From: Lytechinus pictus
Lineage: Eukaryota
Reading direction: 5' to 3'
Assembly (NCBI RefSeq): GCF_037042905.1
Contig: NC_087245.1
Span: forward strand, 34,102,001 to 34,166,000
Length of the DNA stretch: 64,000 nucleotides
Shown here: in pieces, positions 5,987 to 62,385 of the stretch
How positions within the stretch are numbered: position 1 is the first letter of the stretch
Layout of the letters: every line of letters starts with the position of its first letter
Position numbers and translations under genes: made by a program
The notes under the pieces: model-generated
What the model saw: the letters and a program-made list of their open reading frames with translations, nothing else
Databases searched by the model: none
Told to the model about the DNA's origin: nothing

Positions 5987-8804
5987 TACCACCAAATAAA
6001 GTCAAAGCATAATAGGCCTCTCGGCATTTGCCTAAAGTGAATGTCAGTTTTGATAAGAACTTACGAAAAAAAAACTCGTTAGATTAAAATTGGCCTTTTA
6101 CTGAATAAGGTTGTTGCACAGAGCCGTAGTTAAATGGGGGTGCCGGCGATAGAGACGGAACCAGGGGGCGAAGCAGCCGCCCCCCCCCCCCCCCCCCGCG
6201 GCACAAAAAAAAAAGAAAAAAGGGGAGGAGAGGAGAGAAAAGAGGGAAAGTAAGGAGAAGAATGGGTGTCTTTAGTTTTTCTTGCAGGTCAGTACATCAA
6301 AAATTTCTGCTCGCGTTTCGCCCTTGCATAATCGTTTAATTATTAGGATACACATAAATCGTCTTTCTTTGTATCAACCAGCATACTCGACTGGAATAAA
6401 CTCCCTGTAGCTATAGTTAACTCATTATCTTTGGACTCCTTCAAAAGTAAATTAAATATCAATTAATACCTCGAGCCACTCCACACGTAGCGTGCACTTC
6501 AAGTTAGCGTGATGTGCCAATCCTGGTATTTTGCTGACTGAATGATACAGATACAGAAAAAAATGGCTGAAAAGTTTCGTTTTAGGTCGATCTAAATCTG
6601 AATAAAAAAGTATTCGCTCTTGCAATAGTTTATTGAGATACACATTTTGTTTTATTATCAATTTTGAGATTACCGCTCAAATTCTTCTGGTCGGAATTTT
6701 GAAATTATTCAGCTCATGCTTCCCATTCGCATCAATTGTTTGGCTAATATTACATCCTGTTCATGGTTACAAAAAGTTCCTATAATCTTTAGTTTTTAGG
6801 TTGGAAAGTCAAAAAATTGTTTTAGTCAAAATACCCATCCCGTTTACGGTTACAAAAACAATGCTTTGAGAGCTTCCAGTTTCCAGGTCGGAATATCAAA
6901 ACTTTTCAGGTCGCGCTTCGCGCTCGTATTATTTAAATGTTTTATGAGATGTATACCATGCACTGCAGACAGCTTATGTCAGCATGCAATAATCATTTTA
7001 GTTATATACGCCTTAGAATGAATATTAACTGCTCAGAATGTTCTATTTTCAGGTCGCAATAATGAAATATCAAACTATTGTTTGTTTAAGGCATAAGATC
7101 TAGACACCTTATCTTGTTTGTAAGAATATATAAAAGTCCAACTAATAAAGGCGTAGACTGATTGAGGCATGAGGAGGAGCAATTTTGAGGAGGACGGTGA
7201 AAGAAGTAGAATATAAGAATAGATATCACATCATAAAGAAATTATTTCAGAACGGTATTGTAGAGGTTAAGTAAGTGTTTCAAGTTGGTGCCTACATGTA
7301 TTGGCCTGGGAATTGAATAATGCAAGATAATAAACTCATGAGCGTGAATACGTTATCGATATTATAGTAGACCGGCCAAAAGTAAAAAAGTGCTCTAGAT
7401 AAGGATTCGACGGCAAAATTTGTTAATGCTTGGCATCCCAGCTAAAAGTCTTGCAAAAATACCCAGGAATAGCGTACGGCCGGATGCCAAGCGCAATTTT
7501 GCGTGAAAGTGTCATTTTAGCGTAAAAACTGAAAGAATGTCGAAAATCACGCATTTTGATATTTTGACGGATTATCATCATATTTTTGATTATCTTTCAT
7601 ATGAAATTATTTTTATTCAGAGTTTCAAATTATAAGTCTCATAAATATGCATTTCAAATTTGAATATTACACACACACATATGGCACAGGGAAACATAAA
7701 ACCGCGATTTCCTCAAAATAAAAGTTTGTGAAAACTATCAATAGTTTGAAGTTTTTTTACGCAGCTTAAATTCTTCGATTTAATTGCGTTTATCCATCAA
7801 ATGTATAGTAAATGTCCTAATGTCACAAATATTAAAAGAATTTTCAAGTAAGATGGAAGATATCTCACTTCATGTTATCCGAAAGGAGACAATGTGCATT
7901 TTACCAGGTGCGCATTTTGAAAGAAAAATTGAAAAAACCGTACATTATGTACATAATTACATGTATAAGTACATACTAAAGCGAGTTTTTAATTACATGT
8001 ATAAGTGCACTCTAAAGCGAGTTTTTAATTGGATAGCACAATTTGTCAATTCTTTGCATCCCAGCTAAAAGTCTTGCGGAAATCCTGAGAAATAACGTAC
8101 GGGCGTATACCAAGTGCACTTTTGCGTGAAAGTATCATTTTTTGCGTAAAATTTGAAAGACTGTTGAAAATCATGCATTTTGATATTTTGACGGATTATC
8201 ATCATATTTTTGGTTATCTTTGATATGGAATTATTTTTATTCAGAGTTTTAAATTATAAGTCTAGTAAATATGCATTTCAATTTGGAATATTACACACAC
8301 ATATATGGCAATATGAAATATAAAATCGTGATTTACTAAAAATAATAGTTTGTGAAAACTATCAATAGTATAATGTTTGTGTTCCTCATCTCAATTTCGT
8401 CAATTTTAGCGCTAACCGAATAAATACATAATAATTGTTGTCATGGCACATATAGTGAAAACAAATGTTGTAATAAGATGCAAGATATATCATTTTATGT
8501 TATATATGCGAAAGATAACAATGTACATTTATCGGATGCGCATTTCTGATAAAATACAAACAGCGCACAATATTACATCTATATTGCACATATACTAATA
8601 TCAATCAGTGCGATACTCGTCATGATCTTATATAGGATTATGTTTACTTTTGTAGAGTTCGATCTTCTTGCTATTTCCGCGAATTAATTGGTGCTGAACG
8701 TAAATCTACCTGTGGCGATATTCATAAATAGGTCTGATATTTAATTTGCCGTTACCATGGTAACATTAATTTTGTAGGAATATCTATATCCAAAATCATA
8801 GAAA

Positions 8805-9035
8805 CAGTAGCGTACCTATAGGATTTTCCACAGGGGGGGGGGGGGGCAAAACCGTCGGCCAAAAAATTTGACAAGCAAAAAAAAAAGGTCTTCAAGCTCG
8901 TCAGGGGGGGGGGGGCAAAAAAAGGTCTTCAAGCTCGTCGGGGGGGGGTGGGGCATGGATACGTCTTTTGCATGGGTTGGGACTCGTCAGGGGGGCAGAC
9001 TGCCCCCTCTGCTCCCCCCCGTAGGTACGCTAGTG
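8805..9035. mobile_element. hAT-like MITE
   Basis: Perfect 8-bp TSD CATAGAAA; TIR CAGTAGCGTACCTA / TAGGTACGCTAGTG. Confidence 0.85.
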
Positions 9036-9167
9036 CATAGAAAATATACATGTATGAATAAAACGATCGAATTAGCATGTTTAAACTACTCTGTCAATCT
9101 ACATTTTACTTCAATTATTGGATTATCAAAGTCTAAAGAAATATGGCCGTTACCACGGCAATACCTA

Positions 9168-9480
9168 TTTTTTGTCTCGCCTGCATGCATAGCAGAGCAG
9201 GACTAAAGGAGCCACTTTTCCGGCGGAGGCGACGGTAGTTTTGATATAACAGCGTCATATCAACCTTGAAATTTTAACCAAGGTTACGTTTTCGAAATTT
9301 CTATATAACTTTGAACGTATAGAAAAAAATTAATGACACTTATAACAGTATTCAGGTATTACTGATCGTCTTGCACAAGTTTTAGATCACATGATTAAGG
9401 TCAAAGGTCATTTAGAGTCACTGAACTTTGGCCATATGGGGATATTTGTTCTTAATGTCATCATAACTTTTGAATTCTAA
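9168..9480 (-). mobile_element. Truncated Helentron-associated (DINE-1/HINE-like) element
   Basis: Reverse complement of the 3' end (CCGGAAAAG...GCAGGCGAGACAAAA) and TGACCTTTGACCTT repeats seen at 59.5-62.4 kb. Confidence 0.6.
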
Positions 9481-10331
9481 AATTAGGTAAATGAGCTACG
9501 GACACTGACATAAGCCTTTTGAAAGAAGATGCATAGAAGTGAGGGGGAGGGGAAACTTTCCCCCCCAAAAAATCAAGAAAAGGCATAAAACAACAGAAGC
9601 AAAATAATAGAAAGCTTGTTGGGGAGGGGGTCATTTAGTTATTTATTTATTTAATTATTTATTTATTCTTTTATTTATATATCTATACATATTTATTTAT
9701 TTATTATAACCTCAATTGAATGTAAATATTGTAATTTAAATTTTTTTTTTTAATTAATAAACACAAATTCTTCCCTAAATTAAGGTTTTTGCTTAAAAGA
9801 CTTGGTCAGTCAGCTCACTCACCAGCAGCGTAGCTAGGATTTTGTCAGCAGAGGAGCACGGGGGCGGGGCTTGGTATTTTGCAGGGGGTACCAAAATAGA
9901 TTGATTCATCAAGTATTTATTATTAAGTACATATTAGCTTTATTCTCACAAGCACGATTAAGTATCTGACAAGGCCCATTTGAATAATGCGAGCGCGAAG
10001 CGCAAGCATTTTTATAATATGCAATGAAATTTAGAGCTGAAAGTTAGAAAGTTACACAATTCGTAAGTGTAATCACGAACATTATTGTAATGTTAAAAAT
10101 TTCAGAAATTCTTAATATTCTGACGTGAAAACGGAGCATTTAATACATATCTTAAAAAAATGATAGATAGGCTATTGATGCGAGTCCGAAACGCAATCTG
10201 ATTTTTATATTCCAATCCGTAAACTGGACATTTTGATGACGTTTTGAAATAAAGAATGTTATGTATCTGTTTTTAAAAATCCAGCACAAGCCGAGCTGGC
10301 TTTTTTTTATATTAGAAACGAAACATTCTAA

Positions 10332-10550
10332 GGCGCGATAGGGGCGATAGCTCAATCGGTAGTGAGGGGGTTTCGGATTCCGGTGGCCTGGGTTCGATTC
10401 CCACTTGGCGCGCTAGTGCCAAGTAAGGCATTTAAATGGTAGTAAGGCATTTTAGTCCTATAGGTCCCTCGGAGAGTACCTTAAGTCATCGGTCATCTGG
10501 TTGCTTGCTTAGAAGCATTCACGCTTTCTTAGCAAATGAGGTAAAACAAA
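10332..10550 (+). mobile_element. tRNA-derived SINE (same family as 50388)
   Basis: TAGCTCAATCGG A box, GGTTCGATTCC B box, non-tRNA body with GGTCCCTCGGAGAG...TTAAG..TCGGTC core. Confidence 0.8.
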
Positions 10551-10992
10551 AATCGTCAAATCATAAACAATGATCAGTATTTAATTATAGCATTTGATGC
10601 GAGCGCGAAGCGTGAACTGAAAATGTCGAATTAAACGAAGGATTTTAAACATGTTTTTAATGTAGAAAAAGATGAATATCTTACTAAACAAAAACGTTAG
10701 CGCAAAAGCGCGAGCTAAAATTGGGAGAGACTAAGAGCTAAAGATCGGACATACAGTATTCACATTTATTTAATAATGGACTGGATGCGACTGGATTCTG
10801 AGAAGTTGACACTTCAAGCAAGGTTTTTTTTAAACAGATAGCAAGTTGTTTATCTCATATATTAATGCCAGCGCGAAGCTCGAGTCGAAAATTTATTCGC
10901 CATCTTTTTGTAATCTCGTGTAGGGTGCCTATCTCACTAAACCACAATAAAATATACACTCGAATCGCGAGCAGAATACTTTGGGTATATTA

Positions 10993-11165
10993 CAGCGGCG
11001 TACCCAGGATTTTCCAAAGGGGGGGGGCAATTTTTTGGAGGATATTTCGTCCGCGAAAAAAAATTACAAGCAATAAAAAAGGTTTTCAACCACAAATAAA
11101 GGATTTTGTACCAATAAAAAAATCGTCAGGGGGGGGGGGCAGTCTGCCCCCCCTTTATGCTAGTG
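10993..11165. mobile_element. hAT-like MITE related to 8805-9035
   Basis: CAGCGGCGTACC...GCTAGTG termini; degenerate 8-bp TSD GTATATTA/GTATCTTG. Confidence 0.6.
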
Positions 11166-12834
11166 GTATCTTGAAAACGGGATACTTTCAGCTCCATGTA
11201 ATCCTTTCGGACACTACACATGACCTTAGGCAGCGGGGGAGGGGGGGGGGGGAGAGGCAGTTGCGGCCAGAAATTTTGTAACTCGTTTTAAGTATGTACT
11301 TATTCATGTAATTATGTTAACAATTTACAGTATCTTCAATTTTACATTCAAAAGCCCCCCCCCCCCCCTTCCCGCTAAATTTTGCATACCCCCTTTCGGA
11401 AAAGGTTTCTTCCATCTTACTTGAAAATTCTTTTAATATTTGTGACATTAGAAACGATCGATATTCAATAGATGAACCAATTTAAATCGAAGAATTTAAG
11501 TTGTAAAAAAACTTAGAACTATTGATAGTGTTCACAAACTTCTATTTTGAGTAAATCACGATTTTTATGTCGTATTGCCATATATGTGTGTGTAATATTC
11601 CAAATTGAAATGTATATTTAGTAGACTTATAATTTGAAACTCTGAATAAAAATAATTTCATATCAAAGATAACCAAAAATATGATGATAATCCGTCAAAA
11701 TATCAAAATGCGTGATTTTCGACAGTCTTTCAGATTTCACGCTAAAAATGATACTTTCACGCAAAAGTGCACTTGGCATCCGCCCGTACGTTATTCCTCA
11801 GTATTTCCGCAAGAATTTGAGCTGGGATGCAAAGAATTGACAAATTGTGCTATTCAATTAAAAACTCGCTTAAGTGTGTACATATACATGTAATTAAAAA
11901 CTCGCTTTAGTATGTACTTATACATGTAATAATGTACATAATGTACGGTTTTTTCAATTTTTCTTTCAAAATGCGCACCTGGTAAAATGCACATTGTCTC
12001 CTTTCGGATAACATAAAATGAGATATATTCCATCTTACTTGAAAATTCTTTTAATATTTGTGGCATTAGGACATTTACTATACATTTGATTGAGAAACGT
12101 ATTTAAATCGAAGAATTTAAGTTGCGTAAAAAACTTTAAACTATTGATAGTTTTCACAAACTTTTATTTTGAGGAAATCGCGGTTTTATGTTTCCCTGTG
12201 CCATATGTGTGTGTGTAATATTCAAATTTGAAATGCATATTTATGAGACTTATAATTTGAAACTCTGAATAAAAATAATTTCATATGAAAGATAATCAAA
12301 AATATGATGATAATCCGTCAAAATATCAAAATGCGTGATTTTCGACATTCTTTCAGATTTTACGCTAAAATGACACGTTCACGCAACATTGCGTTTGGCA
12401 TCCGGCCGTACGCTATTCCTGGGTATTTTTGCAAGACTGTTAGCTGGGATGCCAAACATTAGCAAGCATTAACAAATTTTGCCGTCCAAAGTATAAAAAA
12501 TCGTTTTGGCCGGTCTACTATTATGGATGTATGAAAGTTACATTTTTTTACTTTAATTTATTTTATTATTTTCATAAGCTTATCAATGACATAAAATAGT
12601 ATTGCACACAATGCGATATTGAAAACAAACATCCGGATAAAATCATAATTGATCATATAATCAAAGATACAGGGCCGCAGTATCGGGGGCAGGGAGTTTC
12701 AGCGCCCACCCCCCCCCCCCCCCCCTCCACACACACACTTTTCCAAAAACAAGCGAAATCCTTAAAACCATAATCAAAGGGGGAGACAGCCTCAATATGC
12801 ATAGCTGTACAAAAATCATGTTTTGCATAATTAA

Positions 12835-31851: not shown

Positions 31852-31975
31852 CGGTGCTCTCTGAGTCTCTGTGTCATTACAAAGATTGCATTTATCTTCA
31901 TTGTTGAAGGCATTACGCATACATATATGCAGCAACACTCTAATCAGAAAGAAACACCAGACTCTAATTTTGGCC

Positions 31976-32176
31976 CACCCAAGGGTTCATTACATGCCGC
32001 CGCGCACAGAAAATTCAAGCAATAGAAGTCGTGGACCCAAGAAGTGAGATCCCAGCACGCGCGACCCACTAGTTAGAAATCCACTGCCAAACGCGGTTCG
32101 TGGTTAGTATACTAATACTAACCTCGCAATACGTACTAGTAGTATACTAATACTAACCTCGCAATACGTGTGAGTG
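31976..32176 (-). mobile_element. ~190-bp non-autonomous element with 9-bp TSD, copy 1
   Basis: Perfect TSD ATTTTGGCC; termini CACTCA...TGGGTG on the minus strand. Confidence 0.85.
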
Positions 32177-32401
32177 ATTTTGGCCAGGAATCAGGGTAAT
32201 CACTGCTGAAAATTTGTCTGGCTTCATGACATCGGCATCATGGTGATAAAATTCTGTGTATAATAAAAACTTAAACATTCCTCTGAAACAGCAGATTTTC
32301 AGCCATGGTCCATACCACTCAGTGCTCCTAAATAATTTAATTGCCTGCCTGAGTCCTGACCAGTTTTAGAAATCTGAAGAAAAAATCTGCTGGAATTGTG
32401 C

Positions 32402-32589
32402 CACTCACACGTATTAAGTATACTAACCCCGCACCACGAACCGCGTTTGGCAGTGGATTTCTAACTAGTGGGTCGCGCGTGCTTAGCCTGGAGGCGTCTG
32501 GGATCTCACTTCTTGGGTCCACAACACACGACTTCTATGGCTTGATTTTTCTGTGCGTGGCGGCATGTAATGAACCCTTGCCTTGGGTG
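32402..32589 (+). mobile_element. ~190-bp non-autonomous element with 9-bp TSD, copy 2
   Basis: TSD GAATTGTGC/GAATTGTAC; same sequence as copy 1. Confidence 0.85.
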
Positions 32590-39759: not shown

Positions 39760-41037
39760 CTACAAAAGACAAACAAATGAAAATCTGAAGTGACATTGGG
39801 TGTTAAATATGCAAATAATGTTTTTCACAAATAAATTTGCATATTTCATTCATAACAAATATAAAATGCTTATGTTATCAATTTCAGGATATTTTGTATA
39901 CTGGCTTGTATTTTATGCTGTAATGAATGTGCATATCAAATTTTGGCGCAATCACGCGAACAGCGGCGAATACCATGCTGAATATAAATCCTTCATTTAC
40001 ATTTGAAATATATCATCCACTTGACAAAGCTTATGATATTCACCACAAATATACTTCATCTGATTGTCATATTAATTGACTGTGCATGGGAAGGCCTATA
40101 TACAAGATTAGACATTAATTTGGAAAAAGGATCAAATTAGATGCCAACATGACACCTCACCTGACAACAAACATCATTTTACAATTTTCAAGGAGAGGTG
40201 GGAATTTTACTTCTTGTAGATGGAGCTATATATTGGTGTAATGGGTTCTTCAGTGTAAACATTTTGTTGTATTGCCCATAAACTTTTGATTCAGTACCCT
40301 AAAATTGACATCAGGCAAGATAAAAAATCTAGATATACATGTATTGTGCATATCAAATACATGATCAGAACAAATATGAGAGCTCGATACAAAATCAGTA
40401 CCGTTTTAATTAACTCTTTGTGCGCTGGACCATGAACCCATCTGTACTGAATTATTTTCAGGGAGGGAAACAATGCATTGTTTGTTGAGTGTGAAATGCG
40501 AAGTTCGCACGGCACCGAGTGTGCATTGGTGCGAAGTACGCGTGGAAAGGGTTAATAATTGCTCCCCAGTGGGTGCCAGTAATACACCTTAATATATTAA
40601 TTCTTTTTTTTTGCATCTAGTTAATAAGTCACTGATGTTGTAAATCCACGTAAGTTCAGAATCAAAAGTTAAACCTAGAAATTTGAAATTCGATACAACT
40701 TCTATTTTATTGTCTCCAATATAAATATCAGTGATCACTGAAAATGACTTTTGTTTTGGTAACGGATAATTTAAGTTTCATTTTGCTTGTACATTCTGCA
40801 ATGGAATAAATATCTGTTTGAACTTTTTTGGTTGCAATTTTAAGATTTCGACATCTATACCATAATCAGGGGTGTGAGTGGTCACAAATAAAAAGATCTG
40901 AAGAAGCTGAAGTGTTGAAAAAGTCTGAAATAGAAAGAGCTCCCATACTTTTTGTAGAGGAAGGCCAAAAATAAGCTGAAATTAAGCTGAAAAATCAAAA
41001 CAAAAAAATCTGAAATCAGATAAAAATCACACCCCTG

Positions 41038-41468
41038 CAAAATGCAATGTCATCTGCAAAAATAGCTATATTCAAATAAGTGCATGAAAGCGCCAGATCA
41101 TTGATATAAAGATTGAACAGGAATGGACTTATGACTCCCCCTTGGGGGAGCCTTTTATTTATTTCCTTTCCATGTGAAATGAAGTTATGAACCCTTACTC
41201 TGTATGTTCGATCTTTGATAAACCAAAATTTCGTAATTTCATTATCAGAATTTTATGATCAACATTGTTGATCTTCTCCAGGTCGAGGAAAGCTGCTATA
41301 ACGAAATTGTGATTCATAAATGATTTATGAACATCTGTGTAGAGTCTTGTTAAATTATTGAAAACACTTCTATTTGGAGTGAAGCCAGATTCAAGGGGTG
41401 ATATCAGATTATATTTTTTGTTTAGCCAAAATAGTCTTTAAGTTGTCATTCCTTCCACATTTTCTTGA
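41038..41468 (-). mobile_element. Degenerate non-LTR (LINE) reverse transcriptase fragment
   Basis: Minus-strand translation shows ISPLESGF..AAFLDLEK..LPQGGVISPFLFNLYINDL..IFADDIAF motifs, with indels. Confidence 0.8.
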
Positions 41469-42790
41469 CCAATCGTTTCTACCAGGGGATCACCAACCTA
41501 CAACATAGCCCGCCACCTTGCAACCATCCTACAACCACTGATGGGGAAAACAAAGCATCATGTCATGAATTCCTCCCACTTTATCAACAAGCTCAAAGAG
41601 GCCTCCATCACTCCTGAAGTCTGGTCAGCTTTGATGTAGAGTCACTGTTCACCAGTGTCCCAGTCCGAGAAGCATGTGACCTCATAAAGAAGAAACTCCA
41701 AGATGACTCCTCCCTAGCAGACCGGACCTCCATATCGCCCGACCAAATCCACGATCTACTGCTTACATGTCTTGAGTCTACCTCCTTTCAATGGCGAGGC
41801 AGCTACTACAAGCAGCAGGAGGGGGCAGCAATGGGATCACCCCTTTCACCTATAGCTGCCAACATCTACATGAAAGAATTCGAGTCGACAGCCATTCAGT
41901 CATCGCCTCTCCCACCCAAGATCTGGCTCAGATATGTAGATGATACATTCGTCATTTGGCAACATGGTAGAGACAGCTTGGAAGATTTCCTTCTTCATCT
42001 CAACTCTCAACAGCTGAAGATCACCTTCACGATGGAAAAGGAGAAGAATAACTCCATATCATTCTTGGATGTTCTAGTTACACATGAACCTAACAACCAC
42101 CTCTCATACCAAGTATACCGCAAACCAACCCATATTGACATGTATCTTCATTTTAACTCATTCCACCACCCTTCTATCCTCCAGTCTGTCCCAAGAACAT
42201 TGGTCAAGAGGGCACACTCTATCAGCGATGGCAACTACCTGCAACGGGAGCTTGAACACATCAAGTCGACACTCATAACTATCAATGATTATCCTCCACT
42301 CAAGATCAAGACCAAACCTACTATGGTTATCTTACCTTACCTAGGTTCTACTTCCCACAAACTTCAACGCATATTCAGAGCAGCCAAGATTGATGTGCGA
42401 CACCGATCTTCCAACAAATTACATGCTGCCCTCTATACTCACAAGGACGTCAAGCCCTCCGCGTCACGGCCTGGAGTATACAGGATACCATGTTCTTGTG
42501 GAAAGGTATACATCGGTGAAACTGGATGCAATTGGATTACCAGACTCAAGGAACACTAGAGCAGCTACAGCAAGGGGGAATGGGAGAAATCTGCTATAGC
42601 CAAACATGCACACCAACTACAACATAAAATTCTATGGGAGGACGCCAAGCTACTAACGTCAATCAAGCACTGGCATACCAGACGGGTACGAGAGGCCATA
42701 GAAATCACCAAGCATGACACAGCACAAGAAGACAGCGGCCTACTCATCAACAATATTAAGAACCCACTGCTAAACAAGACCACTAATCAA
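41469..42790 (+). mobile_element. Penelope-like retroelement, 5'-truncated and disrupted (RT + GIY-YIG endonuclease)
   Basis: PIVS..GSPTY, LVSFDVESLFTSVP, GAAMGSPLSP, RYVDD, VYRKPTH, GVYRIPCSCGKVYIGETG..RLKEH, SAIAKH, REAIEI; frameshift near 41620 and stop at 42557-42559. Confidence 0.93.
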
Positions 42791-46674: not shown

Positions 46675-48112
46675 AACTAGCACATCAATGATGTGGAGCT
46701 CATCCGGCATCTCGAAACAAAATTTAACACAATTAATAATTTCAGCCCAGTTGACACTGTAGTAAACTATGTTGGTGACATAAATTTAGGAAACAGAATT
46801 GAAATTGGTGAACCTCATGAGGCTCTCAGATGGAACCAAAAAATCAAAATCAGTCAACAAATAAATAATCATTTTTGTGAGTTTTGAAAAGTATGCATAA
46901 ATTAGCATATTTATTGAGTTTCTAAATTCTGTGTAGAAATTTAGTATCCTCACATAGAGCTATCATATAAAGCAAACAAAATTGAAATTGATCAACAAAT
47001 AAAGGAGAAAAAGTATTTTTTGTGATTTATAAATAAATTTTGCATAAAGCATAAATAACTTTCTAGTCAAAATGTCTATTAAAATTCTGTGTAGAAGTTT
47101 GGTGTACCTCATGAAGTTCTACCAGATGGAAGAAAAAAAAATCAAAATCGGTCAACAAATAAAGAGGCATTTTTTTATTATGAATAAATTTTGCATAAAT
47201 TAGCATTAATAATTTTCTTCTCAAAATTTCTAAATTATGTGTAGAAGTTTGGTGAACCTCATGAAATTCTACCAGAAGGGAGAAAAAAAATCAAAATCAG
47301 CCAACAAATAAAGAAGAAGAAGCATTTTTTTCATTATATGCATAAATAATTTTCTGGTCAAAATTTCAAAATTCAGTGTGGAAACTTGGTGACCAACATG
47401 TAGCTCTACCAGATGGATGAAAAAAAAATCAAAATTGGTCAACAAATAAAGAAGAAAAGGCATTTTTTGTGATTATGAATAAATTTTGCAAAAATTAACG
47501 TACCAATAAATAATTTTCTACTCAAAATTTCTAAATTCTGTGTAGAAGTTTGGTGAACCTCATAAAGTTCTACCACATGGAAGAAAAAAAATCAAAATCA
47601 GTCAACAAATAAAGAAGCATTTTTTTATTTTTAGAAATATGCATAAATAATTTTCTAGTCAAAATTTCAAAATTCAGTGTGGAAATTTGGTGACCCTCAT
47701 GTAGCTCTACCAGATGGATGAAAAAAAAATCAAAATTGGTCAACAAATAAAGAAGAAGAAGCATTTTTTTATCATTATAAATAAATTTCGCATGAATTAG
47801 CATACAAATTCTTCTAGTCATAATTTTAAAATTCTGTGTTGAAGTTTGGTTAAACTCATGAATCTCTACCAGAAGGAAGCATAAAAATCAAAATCGGTCA
47901 ACAAATAAAGAAGAAGCATTTTTTGTGAATTTTGAAAAATGGGCATAAATTACTAGTAGCATAATTAATGAGTTTCAAAATTCCGTGTGGCAGTTTTTAA
48001 TCCCCCACCTAGTGCTATCATATAAAGCAAACAGAATTGAAAAAAGAAGAAGCATTTTGAAATTGTGGACGGACGACAGACGACGGACGCTATGCCACGG
48101 CATAAGCTCAGC
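46675..48112 (+). repeat. ~150-bp tandem array within a probable Helentron-associated element
   Basis: AAATTCTGTGTAGAAGTTTGGTGAACCTCATG...AAAATCGGTCAACAAATAAAG recurs about 9 times; ends in a GGAC/GACG microsatellite and ATAAGCTCA. Confidence 0.8.
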
Positions 48113-50315: not shown

Positions 50316-50387
50316 AACATTAACAAGTTAGTCAGACCTTCATCCATAACTCATAAGCATATTATAAGTTCATAAAGTGCATAGGGA

Positions 50388-50614
50388 GGCGCAATAGCTC
50401 AGTCGGTAGAGCGGGGGTTTCGGATTCCGGTGACCCGGGTTCGATTCCCACGTGGTGCGCTAGTGCCCTTTGGTAAGGCATTTATCCTCATTACCAGGTC
50501 TCTCGGAGAGGACCTTAAGCCGTCGGTCCTCTGGTTGCTTGCTCACAGGCATTTGTGCTTTCTTAGCAGTCAGGTAAAAATCTCGGTATAACAACATAAC
50601 ATAACATAACATAA
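50388..50614 (+). mobile_element. tRNA-derived SINE with (CATAA)n tail
   Basis: TAGCTCAGTCGG A box, GGTTCGATTCC B box, central GGTCTCTCGGAGAGGACCTTAAGCCGTCGGTCC domain, (CATAA)4 tail. Confidence 0.88.
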
Positions 50615-53089: not shown

Positions 53090-54790
53090 CTACAAATACG
53101 GAATAAAGGAAAAACATATGTTAAAACGCAATTTGAATTTTTTGATGGGCAAATTGATTAAGGTGCTAGTATAGTGACAAATTTCACTAAATACGGGATA
53201 AAGCTTATAGAAAAAACTTGGTGAGCATAGGTGCGAATCAACCAAGATTCTAATAATTACTATTGACCGGAGGGCGGGAAAAGTGGTGTTCTGGGTTTGA
53301 AATGTCTGGCTGGGCGGGGGGTAGAGCGAAGGAAAGTAAGGCAACAAAAATGGGAGGCATATTAGGGTGTTAGTATAAAAACTTCAACAAAATACGTAAA
53401 AACCGATATAGTAAAGTTGAAACGCATTAATAGATTTTTTTTTTTGGGGGGGGGGCATAATTATTAAGGTGCTAATAAAGAGTGACAAGCTTTACCAAAA
53501 TGCGGAATAAAGTAATAAAGAAAAGTTTGTGGGCATAAAGTACTAAGTGATGATCGAGCCAAGATTCTTAATTCTCTATTGCTTTAGTCCGTATCAATTT
53601 GATGCAGTATAGAGTGACTGCATAAAAAATATACAGAATAAAGCAATACAGAAATATTGGCATATTAAGGTTCTGGTATAAAGTGACAAACTTATCAAAA
53701 TACGGAATAAAGCGATATAGAAAATTTTGAACACAATTTAATATTCTGTGGGTATATTAAGGTGCTAGTATATACTGATGAACAAGCCAAGATTCTAATA
53801 ATTCGTGTTGGCCCGGAGGGCGAGAAAAGGGTTTTTCTTTTGGGGGTATATACATGTAAGCAGCGGACAGGGGGATTGAAATATCTGAGGGGGGATAGAG
53901 CGAAAAGAGAAAAGTAGGAAAAGCTAATTTTATTAAAAATTATTTTGGGCATATTAAGGTGCTAGTATAGAGTGACAAGCTTCATGAAAATACGGAATAA
54001 AGCAATATTGAAGAGTTGTTGGGCATATTAAGGTGCTAGTATAGAGTGATGAACAAGCCAAGATTCTAATAATTCGTGTTGGCCCGGAGGGCGAGAAAAG
54101 GGGTTTTCTTTTGGGGGTATATAAGCAGCGGACAGGGGGGATAGAGCGAAAAAAGAAAAGTAGGAAAAGCAAATTTTATTAAAAATTCTTTTGGGCATAT
54201 TAAGGTGCTAGTATAGAGTGACAAGCTTCATGAAAATACGGAATAAAGCAATATTGAAAAGTTGTTGGGCATATTAAGGTGCTAGTATAGAGTGATGAAC
54301 AAGCCAAGATTCTAATAATTCGTGTTGGCCCGGAGGGCGAGAAAAGGGGTTTTCTTTAGGGGGTATATAAGCAGCGGACCGGGGGATTGAAATGTCTGAG
54401 GGGGGATAGAGCGAAAAGAGAAAAGTAGGAAAAGCTAATTTTATTAAAAATTATTTTGGTCATATTAAGGTGCTAGTATAGAGTGACAAGCTTCATGAAA
54501 ATACGGAATAAAGCAATATTGGAAAGTTGTTGGGCATATTAAGGTGCTAGTATAGAGTGATGAACAAGCCAAGATTCTAATAATTCGTGTTGGCCCGGAG
54601 GGCGAGAAAAGGGGTTTTCTTTTGGGGGTATATAAGCAGCAGACAGGGGGATTGAAATGTCTGAGGGGGGATAGAGCGAAAAGAGAAAAGTAGGAAAGGC
54701 ATATTTTATTCAAAATTCTTTTGGGCATATTAAGGTGCTAGTATAGAGTGACAAATTTCCTGAAAATACGGAATAAAGCAATATAGAAAA
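53090..54790 (+). repeat. ~245-270-bp tandem repeat with internal GGGCATATTAAGGTGCTAGTATAGAGTGA subrepeats
   Basis: About 4 highly similar units (53.7-54.8 kb) preceded by diverged units. Confidence 0.9.
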
Positions 54791-54992
54791 GTTGTTGAAG
54801 TTTTTGAAATACGCAATAAAAACGAATGTCAACCTTTAGAAATAGCACCGAAATACTTCACATCCCCGTTCCCCTTAACAAAAAAAAAGGATCCTTGTGG
54901 AGATTCGAACCATGAACGCTTAGATGCGTACGCATTTATGCACTGTGCCACGCTCACCTATTCATTCGACGTAGTGAAATTAAGACCTATAA

Positions 54993-56641: not shown

Positions 56642-58387
56642 CACTCACACGTATTCATTGCGAGGTTACTATTAGTAAACTAACCTCGCACCACGAACCG
56701 CGTTTGGCAGTGGATTTCTAACTAGTGGGTCGCGCGTGCTGGGATCTCACTTCGGCGCTAGTGTAGTTTCGCACCTCCCCGTTTAATGGTTTTCAAACAT
56801 GTACAATCTCACCCTAAATAATTCACAACCTAAAATACTTGCATCTGAGCCTCCAAAGTCCAGTAGAAGTTGAATATTTGCCGTTTTGACACTTTTTTAC
56901 AAAGTTTTACACCTATTTCGGAATCACTCGGTCGCTTGATCAAGCTCAGCGCTGCACATAAGCAGTCGGTACGCGTACAGTACGTACCACCTAGTGAAGT
57001 GCAAGAAGAGCGAGTTTTTCTATGGTATCTTCAAAAAGATTTTTTCCCCTCTTTCAGCTTGCACCAAGTATTACGGTAGTGGTTGTGCAGAGTGGTTGAT
57101 GTTTGTTGTGTGAAGGTATGTGTGTGGGGTGTGCGTGTGTGTGATTTTTTGAATGGAATGTAGTAAATTTGCCATGTACCTGTAGGCTGTAGTACCCTAT
57201 ATGTATTAGTATGTGTATTAGTCTATGTATTGATCTATGTTCATGTATATTAAGTCTGTGTGTGTGCTGTGTGTATGCGAGGAGCGCTCTGATTGGAGCA
57301 ACCTTGATATGCTCCTACGCCTGCTACGTGTGTGCGTTGCACAGCACGTACACAAGCTGGTGCTAAGAGATGGGATCCAGACACCACACAGAGAAGACCC
57401 CGAGACGCCATCGAGTGAGGACATCCCAGTAGCTCCCCACTCGGCGCCATGGTCTGCACCTAGCTGTTATTAGAAGTCTGATATAGTATACCTGTTAGTG
57501 TTTATCTACCTTGTGGAACCGTCTGTGCAAGTGTCAGGTGAGTATAAGTTGTTGTCACTGTTCTTGTACCGTCGAAGTAACCCATATGTGTATTAGTGAG
57601 TCGTAACCCTTGTCAGTGTTGTAATTGTAAGTTTAACCCACTCGCCATCGTATAGTCTATCTCGTGCCATCACATCACATCTGTAACCCTCATTACACTT
57701 TAGTTTTCACAACAAATGTGAAAAATGTGAAAAATGTGAATACACATAGATTTAGCGATGAAATAAGAAATAATAATGTAGAGCCTTGTTTTGAACTCTA
57801 GGTCAGAGATCAAACTTTCCTTCAGTTTACAATTGTATGCTATGTTGATTGTATGCTATGTTGATTTCATGCTAGTAGATTACATTTTTCACATTTCTTA
57901 TTTCATTCAAACGAGCACACACACACACCCCACACACACCTTCACACAACAAACATCAACCACTCTGCACAACCACTACCGTAATACTTGGTGCAAGCTG
58001 AAAGAGGGGAAAAAAATCTTTTTGAAGATACCATAGAAAAACTCGCTCTTCTTGCACTTCACTAGGTGGTACGTACTGTACGCGTACCGACTGCTTACCG
58101 GTATGTGCAGCGCTGAGCTTCAAGCGACCGAGTGATTCCGAAATAGGTGTAAAACTTTGTAAAAAAAGTGTCAAAACGGCAAATATTCAACTTCTACTGG
58201 ACTTTGGAGGCTCAGATGCAAGTATTTTAGGTTGTGAATTATTTAGGGTGAGATTGTACATGTTTGAAAACCATTAAACAGGGAGGTGCGAAACTACACT
58301 AGCGCCTCTCACTTCTTGGGTCCACAACACACGACTTCTATGGCTTGAATTTTCTGTGCGCGGCGGCATGTAATGAACCCTTGGGTG
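56642..58387 (+). mobile_element. ~190-bp 9-bp-TSD element, copy 3, split by a nested insertion
   Basis: TSD GTCTAGACC/GCCTAGACC; halves 56642-56753 and 58316-58387 match 32402-32589. Confidence 0.85.
56754..58306. mobile_element. Mutator-like non-autonomous element with ~400-bp TIRs
   Basis: Perfect 9-bp TSD TCTCACTTC; GGCGCTAGTG...CACTAGCGCC termini; near-identical inverted arms. Confidence 0.9.
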
Positions 58388-58670
58388 GCCTAGACCCTAG
58401 TGTTGGGACAAAACGGTATGCGAGCCGGCTTTGTGTACAAAGTGAATTGAGGTGGAATTTGCAATGCAATGCGTGCGACTGAGAAAAAAACAGCAGCTGA
58501 ACGAATTGAACGGTTAATCCCAATTTCACAATAATGCCTCAATTTATTTCCAGAAATCTCAATGATAAGTCAGGTATACTTACCTCCAAATATATAGGAA
58601 AGAAAAAACACATCATACACGCCTATTAACGTTTAGGCCAAGACACTCCTTGAATCTCGCGCCGCTAGCG

Positions 58671-58845
58671 TGTGTGTATTTGAGTTTTGTCAGACGTGTA
58701 TCAATCAGATATGATTATTTACGTCTGGGACCGACCTTTAACGTCACCATCCGAAAGACGTGACCAGGGCTCGAACCTCGAACCTCTGCATCAATTTGTA
58801 ACTTCCCCACAGCTTGGATTACAGGCGCACGCCACAACGCCTAGA
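58671..58845 (-). mobile_element. SINE-like element with 7SL (SRP Alu-domain)-like head
   Basis: Minus strand GGCGTTGTGGCGTGCGCCTGTAATCCAAGCT head, GGTTCGAGCCC B box, GTCTTTCGGATGGTGACGTTAAAGGTCGGTCC core, (CA)n tail, possible TSD GCTAGCG/GCTGGCG. Confidence 0.7.
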
Positions 58846-59479
58846 GCTGGCGCTCTTCTCGTTGTATGGTATCGGCAATCTATCATCTGCAAATTTCAAG
58901 GTAACTCGAAACTGAAGATTTCTTGGCTTTACTAAATTGTAATAAGGATTTAGAATCTTCAGAGCCGAGAAAACACAAACTTCCTCTACATTTCAAAATA
59001 TGGAAACTTAATTTCGATGATTAAAATTTCTTCTCTCTCTCTCTCTCTCTCTCTTAAACAATTTTGATCATATATTCGGGTGAGCTTATAGGTTTGACTC
59101 TGAGCACAATCTATCACAGATAAAGAAAGTTATCATTTAAACTTTGGAAGTTTTTGATTTGTGACTTATAGGGGAGAGCGGGGTGAGTCAGCCGGCCCTA
59201 GGGGCGAAAAGAAAATTGCTTCCAATGGGACGTACAAGTTCGCCTGTTTTTACGACGGGGCAGGTCCCCCCTAATGCCTATGACAACAATTTATAAATTA
59301 CCTCCAACATAATTATGTAGCCAAAGTTCATTAAACTTTAAAATATAGGTGAAAAATATTTCCCAAGAATTGAATTTTAAGGCAAGGTACTTATTTCTAC
59401 AAGATTATTAGTCATATCAATTCTAACATGCAAAAAGCAAAAAGTGTCACAACTTACCCCTCCTTCCTCTAATATTTGA

Positions 59480-59818
59480 TAACCCTTACGGCCAATTTTG
59501 ATAAGGTCCATATATTTTCAAAGTTATGATGTCATTTCAAAAACTTAACCTCAGGTTAAGATTTCGATATTGACTCCCCGAACATGGTCTAGGTTCATTG
59601 ACCCTAAATGACCTTTACCTTGGTTATGAGACCTGAAACTCGGGCAGGATGTATACTTGATTGACCTTATGTCCAAGTTTCATGAACTAAGTCCATATAC
59701 GATCTAAGTTATGCTGTCATTTCAAAACAACCTTCGGTTAAGATCATTTGAGATTTGATACGCCGCCGCCGTCAGAAAAGCGGCGCCTATAGTCTCACTC
59801 TACTATGCAGGTGAGACA
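59480..59818 (+). mobile_element. Helentron-associated element, 3' part
   Basis: Same repeats and 3' end (GCCGCCGCCGTC..GCGGCGCCTATAGTCTC..GCAGGTGAGAC) as the two downstream copies. Confidence 0.7.
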
Positions 59819-59824
59819 ATTATC

Positions 59825-60240
59825 AAGTGAAAAATAATAAAGTTATTGAATTCAAGTTTGTGCATTATTGTAGTGTAGCAGTTGTATGTATGCCATCATG
59901 AATATGTACAAGAATAATGGGCATCTGCACTTTATTTTTAAAAAAATGTATGAAATGATTATAAAACTTATACATCAGTAGGAAATCCTTGTTTGTTAAC
60001 ATCTTTGGAACAGAAAATTGTAATATTTAATTTTTTTATATAATAAAATACACAAGAATAATCAACTTGCTTCTTGCATATCCCTGAAGACATGCATAAA
60101 TCTGTTTCACAGAAATAAACAAAAATGTAATTGTTAGGCATAACTTTGTTATGACATTTTGATGAAATTTTCAGCGTTTTGTTTATCTGATTTTACTGTA
60201 TCAGTTCAAATCATATTAATACCGGCCTGGAGTACCCCTT
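59825..60240. mobile_element. Partial Kolobok-like element
   Basis: Right end GCCTGGAGTACCCCT-ttaa; interior resembles 12835-13406. Confidence 0.6.
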
Positions 60241-60247
60241 TAAAATG

Positions 60248-61108
60248 AACAAGTTGAGCGCCTCTGACAGTCTCACCTGCATTACGCGATTCAATATAGC
60301 AGCAGTGCTGTCTTTGAAAACTACTATAAGATAATTATTCACAAAAATACCTTTCATATAATGATACGATACAACGTTCATCGACCCTAAATGACACTTG
60401 ACCTTGATCATGTAACCTAAGACTTGTCAGTGATACTTGATTACCCCTATGTCCACAATTCATAAACTATATCCATAAACTTTGAAGGTTATGACAGCAA
60501 TTTAATAATTACCTCCACGATATAGCCAAAGTTCATTGACCTTAATTACCTTTGACCTTAATCATGTGATCTGAAACTCGCACAGGATGTTCAGTGAAAC
60601 TTGATTACTCTTATGTCTAAGTTTTATGAATCATATTTATAAACTTTCAAAGTTATGATGGTAATTCAAAAAATACCCCCAACTTGGCCAAAGTTCATTG
60701 ATCTTAATGACCTTTGACCTTGTTCATGTGACTTGAAACTCATTCAGGGTGTTTAGTAATAATTGATTACCCTTATGGCCAAGTTTCATGAACTAGGTCC
60801 ATATACTTTTTAGTTTATAATGACATTTCAAAAACTTAACCTTAGGTTAAGATTTCGATATTGACTCCCCCAACATGGTCTAAGTTCATTGACCCTAAAT
60901 GACTTTTGACCTTGTTCGTGTGACCTGAAACTCAGGCAGAATGCTTAGTAATACTTGATTAATCTTATGTCCAAGTTTCATGAACTGGCTTTATAAACTT
61001 TCTAAGATATGCTTTCATTTAAAAAACTTAACCTTCGGTTAAGATTTGATGTTGACGCCGCCGCAGCCGCCGTCGGAAAAGCGGCGCCTATAGTCTACGT
61101 GAGACAAA
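60248..61108 (+). mobile_element. Helentron-associated (DINE-1/HINE-like) element with ~150-bp internal tandem repeats
   Basis: Starts AACAAG..CAGTCTCACCTGCA; several TGACCTTTGACCTT-containing units; GCC-rich 3' end. Confidence 0.75.
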
Positions 61109-61730
61109 AATTGTAAAAATGACACGGATCTTAATATTAATACACGATGTGAGCGCGACAAACTTAAATATTTTGGCGATTTATACTTCAATTCTAAGCA
61201 CTTTTTGTAATTTTGAGCAGGATGTGTATCAAACTAAGCAATTAGTGCGAATGAAAATATTCAAAGGTCAATTCCGCCCCAGAAAAAAATGTTGATTTGA
61301 ATCAATAGAGAAAACCCAAACAACGTCAAAATGTCATAACTTTCTTATTTTACTTCCTATTTTGATGAAATTGTAAATGTTACGCTTCTTGGAGTTTTCT
61401 CCTTTTTTATTCAAAATCAATATGTTGGGGTGAACTTGTCATTTAATATGCTGACCTGAAAATGGGAGATTTGAAAGACTGTTCGGCGAGATTCATGAAG
61501 AGGATATGCATCTCATTGATCATATAATACGAGAGCTGATTTTTTTTTATATTCAGCACTTTTTTGTTATCATGAACAGGATGCGTATCTCGCTCAAACA
61601 AAATAATGACTACTCGAATCGCGATTAGAACGATCTGTCCATTGACTTGATGGGGCCCCATCTTCTTGAGCAGATTATTATGTCACTGAACAGGCAATGA
61701 GCGCGAAGCACGAGCTGACTCGTTAGGATT

Positions 61731-62385
61731 AACAAGTGGAGCGCCTCCGGCAGTCTCGCCTGCATTACGCGATTTAATATAGCAGCAGTGGTGACTTTGA
61801 AGACGACCATAAAATCATTATTAACCAAATAAAAAAAACACCATTCATATAGCAATATAACACTACGTCCACTGACCCTAAATGACATGGCCTAAGACTT
61901 GTGCAAGATGATCAGTGATACTTAATTATCCCTACGTCCACATTTCATGAACTATATCCATAAGCTTTCAATTTTTGATAGTAATTCAACAAATACCCCT
62001 AAAATGGCCAAAGCTCATTCACCCTCAATGACCTTTGACCTTGATGATGTAACCTGAAACTCGGCAGGATGTTCAGTAATACTTCATTACCCTTATGCCC
62101 AAGTTTCATGAACTAGGTCCACATAGTATTATTTTACTTTCTAAGTTATGATTTCATTTGAAAAACTTCATTGTAATTGACGCCACCGCCGCCGTCGGAA
62201 AAGCGGCGCCTTTAGTCTCGCTCTGCTACCCCTATGCCCAAGTTTCATGAACTAGGTCCACATAGTATTATTTTACTTTCTAAGTTATGATTTTATTTGA
62301 AAAACTTCATTGTAATTGACGCCGCCGCCGCCGTCGTCGGAAAAGCGGCGCCTTTAGTCTCGCTCTGCTACCCAGGCGAGAAAAA
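61731..62385 (+). mobile_element. Helentron-associated element with duplicated 3' end
   Basis: 5' GTCTCGCCTG is inverted to 3' CAGGCGAGA; 3' hairpin; ~140-bp terminal tandem duplication. Confidence 0.75.

Follow-up and report, generated by a model that had tools for sequence, protein, structure and literature searches.

Whether the Alu domain helps SINEs to spread by way of SRP9/14 and ribosomes, or does no more than give them a promoter, is an open question. It is raised anew by a 175-base element on the minus strand (58845–58671) of the 64-kb stretch of DNA analysed here (the window), in which a 46-base 7SL-like piece is joined to the body of a sea-urchin SINE. Below we ask how far the 7SL likeness of the head holds, where the body comes from, and what the head might do for the element. 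The parts of the element are listed in Table 1.

Table 1. Parts of the 7SL-headed element and its candidate target-site duplication, in 5′ to 3′ order along the minus strand.
Feature	Position	Strand	Basis
Candidate target-site duplication, 5′ copy (CGCCAGC)	58846..58852	-	6/7 against the 3′ copy
7SL-like head, corresponding to helices 2–4 and the UGUNR U-turn in the 5′ part of the SRP Alu domain	58800..58845	-	Rfam Metazoa_SRP positions 1–45
Linker with a 7-base tandem duplication (58786–58780, 58779–58773) running into the B box	58778..58799	-	sequence
tRNA-type Pol III B box GGTTCGAGCCC	58767..58777	-	motif scan; equal position in L002–L004
38-nt core like the 5′ block of the Deu/Nin SINE domain; small hairpin	58727..58764	-	near-invariant in L001–L004
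3′ stem-loop, 7-bp outer stem and inner hairpin	58691..58727	-	single fold and four-sequence consensus fold
A-rich end and short CA-repeat tail	58671..58690	-	sequence; CA about 3–4 units
Candidate target-site duplication, 3′ copy (CGCTAGC)	58664..58670	-	6/7 against the 5′ copy

Ends of the element and its 7SL-like head

The element occurs once in the 64-kb window, and its flanks have no repeats elsewhere in it. The element is flanked by direct repeats of 7 bases that differ at one position, placed exactly at the 7SL start and just past the CA run. Over 20,000 trials with random intervals or shuffled flanks, chance produced such a duplication in 0.2–0.3% of cases with the ends fixed and in 2.5–3.0% with three bases of slack per end, about 3% being the fair figure. 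A candidate target-site duplication and a simple-repeat tail, general features of SINEs, are both present. The first-pass annotation had proposed each of them; its possible 7-bp duplication is retained in an imperfect form, and its (CA)n tail is real but short. It had also read the strand correctly, although the 31 letters that it aligned begin at 58841, four bases inside the end of the element. The element body contains no run of four T, the first such run lying about 62 bases into the flank.

The Rfam metazoan SRP model bears out the proposed 7SL-like start. In a 2.5-kb search, Metazoa_SRP matched positions 58845–58753 of the minus strand with 25.1 bits and an E-value of 0.00059, model position 1 falling on 58845; the sole other match was to a microRNA model (E 6.9). 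When the whole window was searched, the same match had an E-value of 0.015 and was one of nine up to E 1, the others being mostly to microRNA models, several of them on inverted repeats. The score is far under the family gathering score of 70, as is expected because a fragment is forced into an alignment with the whole model. Counted on the printed alignment, where the head is compared with the Rfam consensus and not with a human 7SL string, 34 of the first 45 positions are identical, with one inserted base, and at model positions 11–34 the agreement reaches 23 of 24. The likeness fades past model position 45 (58800). The earlier count of 25 matches over 31 positions refers to the human 7SL 5′ end as given in the first-pass annotation.

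No tRNA was found in the head by Rfam up to E 10 or by ARAGORN, and Rfam reported no 5S match up to E 10. The head does not, then, read better as tRNA than as 7SL, and its derivation from 7SL rather than from tRNA is supported by these sequence comparisons.

On the Metazoa_SRP alignment, the SRP9/14-binding UGUNR motif (TGTAA), which the first-pass annotation had described as kept, is intact, and G24 is unchanged. Helix 4 and most of helix 3 of the SRP Alu 5′ domain are paired on this alignment: model pair 3–42 is kept via a two-sided change and pairs 4–23 and 9–18 via one-sided changes, while pairs 1–44 and 10–17 are broken. Two loop–loop Watson–Crick pairs remain possible by eye in what we presume to be the correct pairing register. 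Helix 3 is present in both folds, but the head folds no better than its shuffled versions, of which 83 in 200 did equally well (z −0.11), and helices 2 and 4 of the Alu domain are missing from its minimum-energy fold. Loop 4 departs from the model at positions 35–37 and appears somewhat decayed in this copy, which may now bind SRP9/14 poorly. The element has no counterpart of the 3′ half of the Alu domain; the 3′ end of the model aligns with many broken pairs, onto bases explained by the parent SINE.

The SINE body and its relatives with other heads

Downstream of the head, both the B box and the SINE core of the first annotation were recovered, the former by motif scan at 58777–58767 and the latter as a 38-nt block that is nearly invariant in four metagenome loci. 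The element has both internal boxes of a SINE, an A box within the 7SL-like head and a B box in the body, the latter about 64 nt past the point where the A-box region starts; in human 7SL, the Pol III A box is placed at 7SL positions 6–15 (PMC7245038). The linker between head and B box, perhaps inherited from the parent SINE, is weakly like the stretch preceding the B box in loci L003 and L004, a likeness not established by the 71 and 134 of 2000 shuffles that were as good.

The core resembles the first (5′) block only of the Deu/Nin domain. Aligned by eye with the BivaMD-SINE1 sequence printed in a supplement, it agrees in about 32 of 42 columns, and it is also like the Nin homology depicted in figures S7–S9 of PMC4758252. 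Assignment of the core to the V (Vhc) domain was considered and dropped, as no likeness to the printed Vhc SINE consensus sequences could be seen by eye. Against another SINE of the window, the core matched at 25 of 36 positions in one copy (8 of 2000 shuffles as good), and the second copy gave no signal. This other SINE is present in two plus-strand copies that are 78% alike (10340–10546 and 50387–50579); it carries a Deu-like block homologous to the core and a tRNA-Arg-like head, called by ARAGORN at 50389–50460. We take it to resemble the known sea-urchin SURF-1 group.

The body folds better than most of its shuffled versions (58700–58800, 2 of 200 shuffles as good). Two outer pairs of the stem are broken in L001, and among the four close sequences none of the 28 pairs of the fold shows a double-sided change. 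The predicted 3′ stem-loop is likely the site that a LINE reverse transcriptase reads. No LINE with the tail of the element was found in the window or in the bacterial and viral collections, the latter being an unlikely place for one.

A search of metagenome contigs with a 19-base core pattern returned four loci (L001–L004). Over the part that starts at the B box or core and ends with the tail, the element is identical to L002 at 97 of 107 positions, to L004 at 83 of 94, to L001 at 78 of 90 and to L003 at 62 of 67, a range of 87–93%. All four lack an SRP match at a cut-off of E 10, and neither ARAGORN nor Rfam calls a tRNA in any of them. L003 and L004 have mutually alike heads with an A-box motif and a B box of tRNA type; because of the missing tRNA calls, we name these heads tRNA-type by their promoter motifs alone. 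In L001 the motif scan finds neither box, and the front of L002 is apparently cut by another element. The tails also vary, with a longer CA run in L002 and CAAC runs in L003 and L004. L003 lies downstream of a coding stretch 92% identical to the carboxypeptidase B of S. purpuratus and 89% to that of L. pictus.

This comparison identifies the body as an existing sea-urchin SINE body that is also found with another head. Since the body is common to loci without SRP matches, and a tRNA-type A box is present in two of them, the element likely arose by a head swap, in which the 5′ domain of 7SL was placed onto an older sea-urchin SINE instead of its tRNA-type front. Template switching or recombination is very likely to have produced it.

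The tRNA-type head of the sister SINE (L003:291–486, L004:171–360) is unusually long, spanning about 67 nt between A box and B box, and escapes tRNA finders. In L003 this SINE starts just past the carboxypeptidase B stop codon and contains a 20-base internal duplication. The core pattern returned no loci from viral contigs, and the core and tail patterns returned none from bacterial and archaeal genomes. Loci L005–L016, collected from viral contigs with looser patterns (2 and 10 loci), were rejected as chance matches that hardly extend past the pattern.

The neighbourhood is in keeping with the invertebrate host that had been annotated. A Penelope-type reverse transcriptase frame at 41618–42559 (+), with a GIY-YIG-like motif at its end, has its best match in Lytechinus pictus (82%; 82–83% to proteins of this species), and most of its top named matches are from echinoderms. 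A sea-urchin host is likely on this sequence evidence, mobile elements being an imperfect marker. Among 197 open frames of at least 62 aa, a Pfam scan found only two reverse-transcriptase pieces above the cut-off and no host gene by which the species could be fixed. A separate LINE-type reverse transcriptase fragment lies at 41019–41252 (−).

The window also holds inverted and tandem repeats. A 1.55-kb element at 56754–58306 has inverted arms of about 410 bases (95%) and is flanked, like Mutator-type elements, by a target-site duplication of 9 bases without mismatch; it sits inside a smaller inverted-repeat element related to 31975–32580. A fold-back-like stretch of 5 kb (7406–12489) lies between inverted arms of about 970 bases with 94% identity. 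Large tandem or satellite-like arrays with units of about 137–300 bases occupy 46800–48040, 53460–54800 and 59470–62370.

Probable spread of the element and possible role of its head

As to family size, 31-mer words of the 621-base stretch 58400–59020 were compared with sequencing runs. In 14 of the 24 runs listed, belonging to two coded organisms and five studies, 0.22–0.34 of the words were found, and no run reached half; the element alone makes up 0.245 of the words of the stretch. These shares fit near-identical copies elsewhere, and a diverged allele of the whole stretch could also be their source. Six RNA runs with shares of 0.05–0.06, two of them labelled sea urchin or echinoderm metagenome, were left out of the argument. 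A second 7SL-headed copy was not met among the four body-bearing metagenome loci. A dispersed family spread by target-primed reverse transcription is, in our judgement, highly probable.

For its transcription, Pol III would probably start from the 7SL A box and the borrowed B box and stop at the T run in the flank, producing an RNA of about 240 nt. The head of this RNA would bind SRP9/14 and settle on ribosomes making the reverse transcriptase of the partner LINE, and a LINE enzyme of CR1/L2 or similar type would grip the 3′ stem-loop and copy from the CA tail. The binding step has precedents. SRP9/14 is described as binding the first ~50 nt of 7SL, with G24 critical, and G24 or its Alu equivalent as needed both for binding and for most retrotransposition (PMC11581171); the fold of the SRP Alu domain is described in PMC8137916. 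In HeLa cells, a 5′ domain of 46 nt reached by itself about 86% of the retrotransposition of Alu, and it is said there to be unable to propagate solely for want of a B box (PMC11760393, preprint, Moldovan et al.). This result concerns L1 and poly(A) in human cells (PMC11760393). By analogy with Alu, and given the other steps, it is moderately probable that SRP9/14 binding to the head raises mobility. The ribosome route may be unnecessary for a LINE that recognises the 3′ stem-loop. To the complete chain, a chimeric 7SL-headed sea-urchin SINE whose RNA binds SRP9/14 to reach LINE-translating ribosomes, we assign slightly better than an even chance.

The main rival holds that the head was retained only because it offers Pol III a good A box and gives a stable 5′ end. 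SRP9/14 binding would then be incidental, the LINE finding the RNA by its 3′ stem-loop. In its favour, 3′ stem-loops of LINE-like form serve for the recognition of the SINEs that carry them (PMC4824008), and the parent body already moves with tRNA-type heads in L003 and L004. A young head, moreover, would resemble 7SL even without selection, and loop 4 is altered in this copy. We nevertheless consider this reading unlikely, if by no means negligible. An A box needs just the first 15 nt, whereas the captured piece continues to model position 45 and stops at the boundary of the SRP9/14 domain. The SINE1 of hagfish, moved by RTE and not by L1, likewise retains the Alu fold (PMC7245038).

A chimeric retrocopy that arose once, or stayed at low copy number, when a LINE enzyme on an ordinary SINE switched template to 7SL RNA, is improbable. 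Small-RNA chimeras of this kind are known (PMC7245038), and both the single copy in the window and the absence of the head from all four related loci agree with such an event. Against it, exact 31-mers amounting to an element-sized share occur in the runs of two organisms, and a template switch would usually be expected to run from a 3′ or internal 7SL point to the 5′ end, without a precise domain boundary.

A chance likeness to 7SL, the head being a drifted tRNA derivative or an unrelated sequence, we regard as very improbable. The 23 of 24 identities of the head at positions 11–34, and the coincidence of model position 1 with the end that the duplication sets, argue otherwise, as do the lack of a tRNA match in the head and the lack of an SRP match in the tRNA-type heads of L003 and L004. 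These points have to be weighed against a score well under the gathering threshold, a window-wide E-value of 0.015 amid spurious microRNA-model matches of similar or better E-value, and a tRNA-type B box downstream.

An assembly artefact fusing a human Alu fragment to sea-urchin DNA would agree with the presumed likeness of the head to the start of human 7SL or Alu, but is extremely improbable given a match that ends at position 45, changes of non-human type that preserve pairing, and fusion of the head to a sea-urchin SINE body bracketed by the duplication.

Returning to the proposed 7SL-headed SINE that would exploit SRP9/14, the most specific form of this reading is that a minimal 46-nt SRP9/14-binding domain, grafted onto a stem-loop SINE, boosts copying by a non-L1 LINE and makes the element the first invertebrate SINE derived from 7SL. 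We advance this tentatively, at somewhat less than an even chance. If true, the SRP9/14-to-ribosome route would be a module that can be transferred, rather than something peculiar to mammalian L1 and poly(A).

Comparison with known 7SL-derived and Deu/Nin SINEs

The head of the element derives from 7SL rather than from tRNA or 5S, as in SINE1 elements, on the evidence given above. The SINE1 families described in PMC13023118 (Alu, B1, Tu, Urop and SINE1-1_EBu) keep both ends of 7SL around a central deletion, which the element does not. The poly(A) tail of Alu, B1 and Urop is absent too, its place being taken by a stem-loop and CA repeats. SINEBase (PMC3531059) defines a SINE family by at least 100 interspersed copies per genome and by an identity of 60% or more with tRNA, 5S or 7SL across 60 nt or more, and admits exceptions given shown Pol III transcription; here the 7SL overlap is about 46 nt, short of the 60-nt rule. 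With the whole Alu domain and poly(A) missing and an overlap below 60 nt, the element is therefore not a member of Alu, B1, Urop or SINE1-1_EBu. Its origin is independent of Alu because its body is sea-urchin SINE sequence. The initial description as an independently evolved Alu analogue accordingly stands as to separate origin, but "analogue" needs a qualifier, as the element has the 5′ 7SL domain alone and a stem-loop and CA end.

The rarity of such elements outside a few chordates, also asserted in the first-pass annotation, agrees with the literature covered, which names supraprimates, shrew moles and hagfish only; in the relevant part of a 2026 paper, all are attributed to the same central deletion (PMC13023118). 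Among the matches listed, in which few subscription papers were covered, the text sections concerned (including those of PMC10886601, PMC3747384 and PMC6887750) name no invertebrate 7SL-derived SINE, and those of 2024 and 2026 give vertebrates only. Repbase or Dfam may hold an entry for the 7SL-headed family, and the parent SINE may already have a Repbase name (SINE2-x_SP). If the element belongs to an echinoderm family, 7SL SINEs would have one more independent origin, outside vertebrates, and the deletion rule would be broken.

The closest parallel is SINE1-1_EBu of the hagfish Eptatretus burgeri (Kojima 2020, PMC7245038), which, in the account given there, likewise combines a 7SL head with the 3′ portion of a pre-existing SINE of tRNA origin, ends in a microsatellite and not in poly(A), and originated independently of Alu. 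It retains 7SL positions 1–96 and the 3′ end, i.e., the whole Alu domain and 7SL's own B box, where the element has only about 46 nt; its tail is derived from RTE and its duplications are about 17 bp long, compared with a stem-loop tail and a 7-bp duplication here. The element described here further differs in its tRNA-type B box, its Deu/Nin-like block and its invertebrate host.

Alu, B1 and Tu of supraprimates and Urop of shrew moles also start with the 5′ SRP Alu domain and an A box (PMC13023118). As characterised in that source, they have a central 7SL deletion of about 183 nt, retain the 3′ Alu strand, carry a terminal poly(A) and depend on L1, none of which is seen here. The engineered SA46/AY46 minimal Alu domain (PMC11760393) is the equivalent ~46-nt 5′ domain, reported to bind SRP9/14 and to drive one round of retrotransposition. 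That construct relies on an external promoter, poly(A) and L1 ORF2p in human cells and has no B box, whereas the element borrows the B box of a SINE.

On the side of the body, the Deu/Nin-domain SINEs SINE2-3_SP, BivaMD-SINE1 and Nin-DC (PMC4824008, PMC4758252) have a 5′ block like the core of the element, and a sea-urchin Deu SINE is listed with a CR1 partner (PMC3747384). The rest of their domain is missing from the element, and all sea-urchin SINEs in the lists given by these sources are tRNA-headed. Because a sister with the same body exists in sea urchins, the 7SL-headed and tRNA-headed pair forms a natural experiment on the role of the Alu domain.
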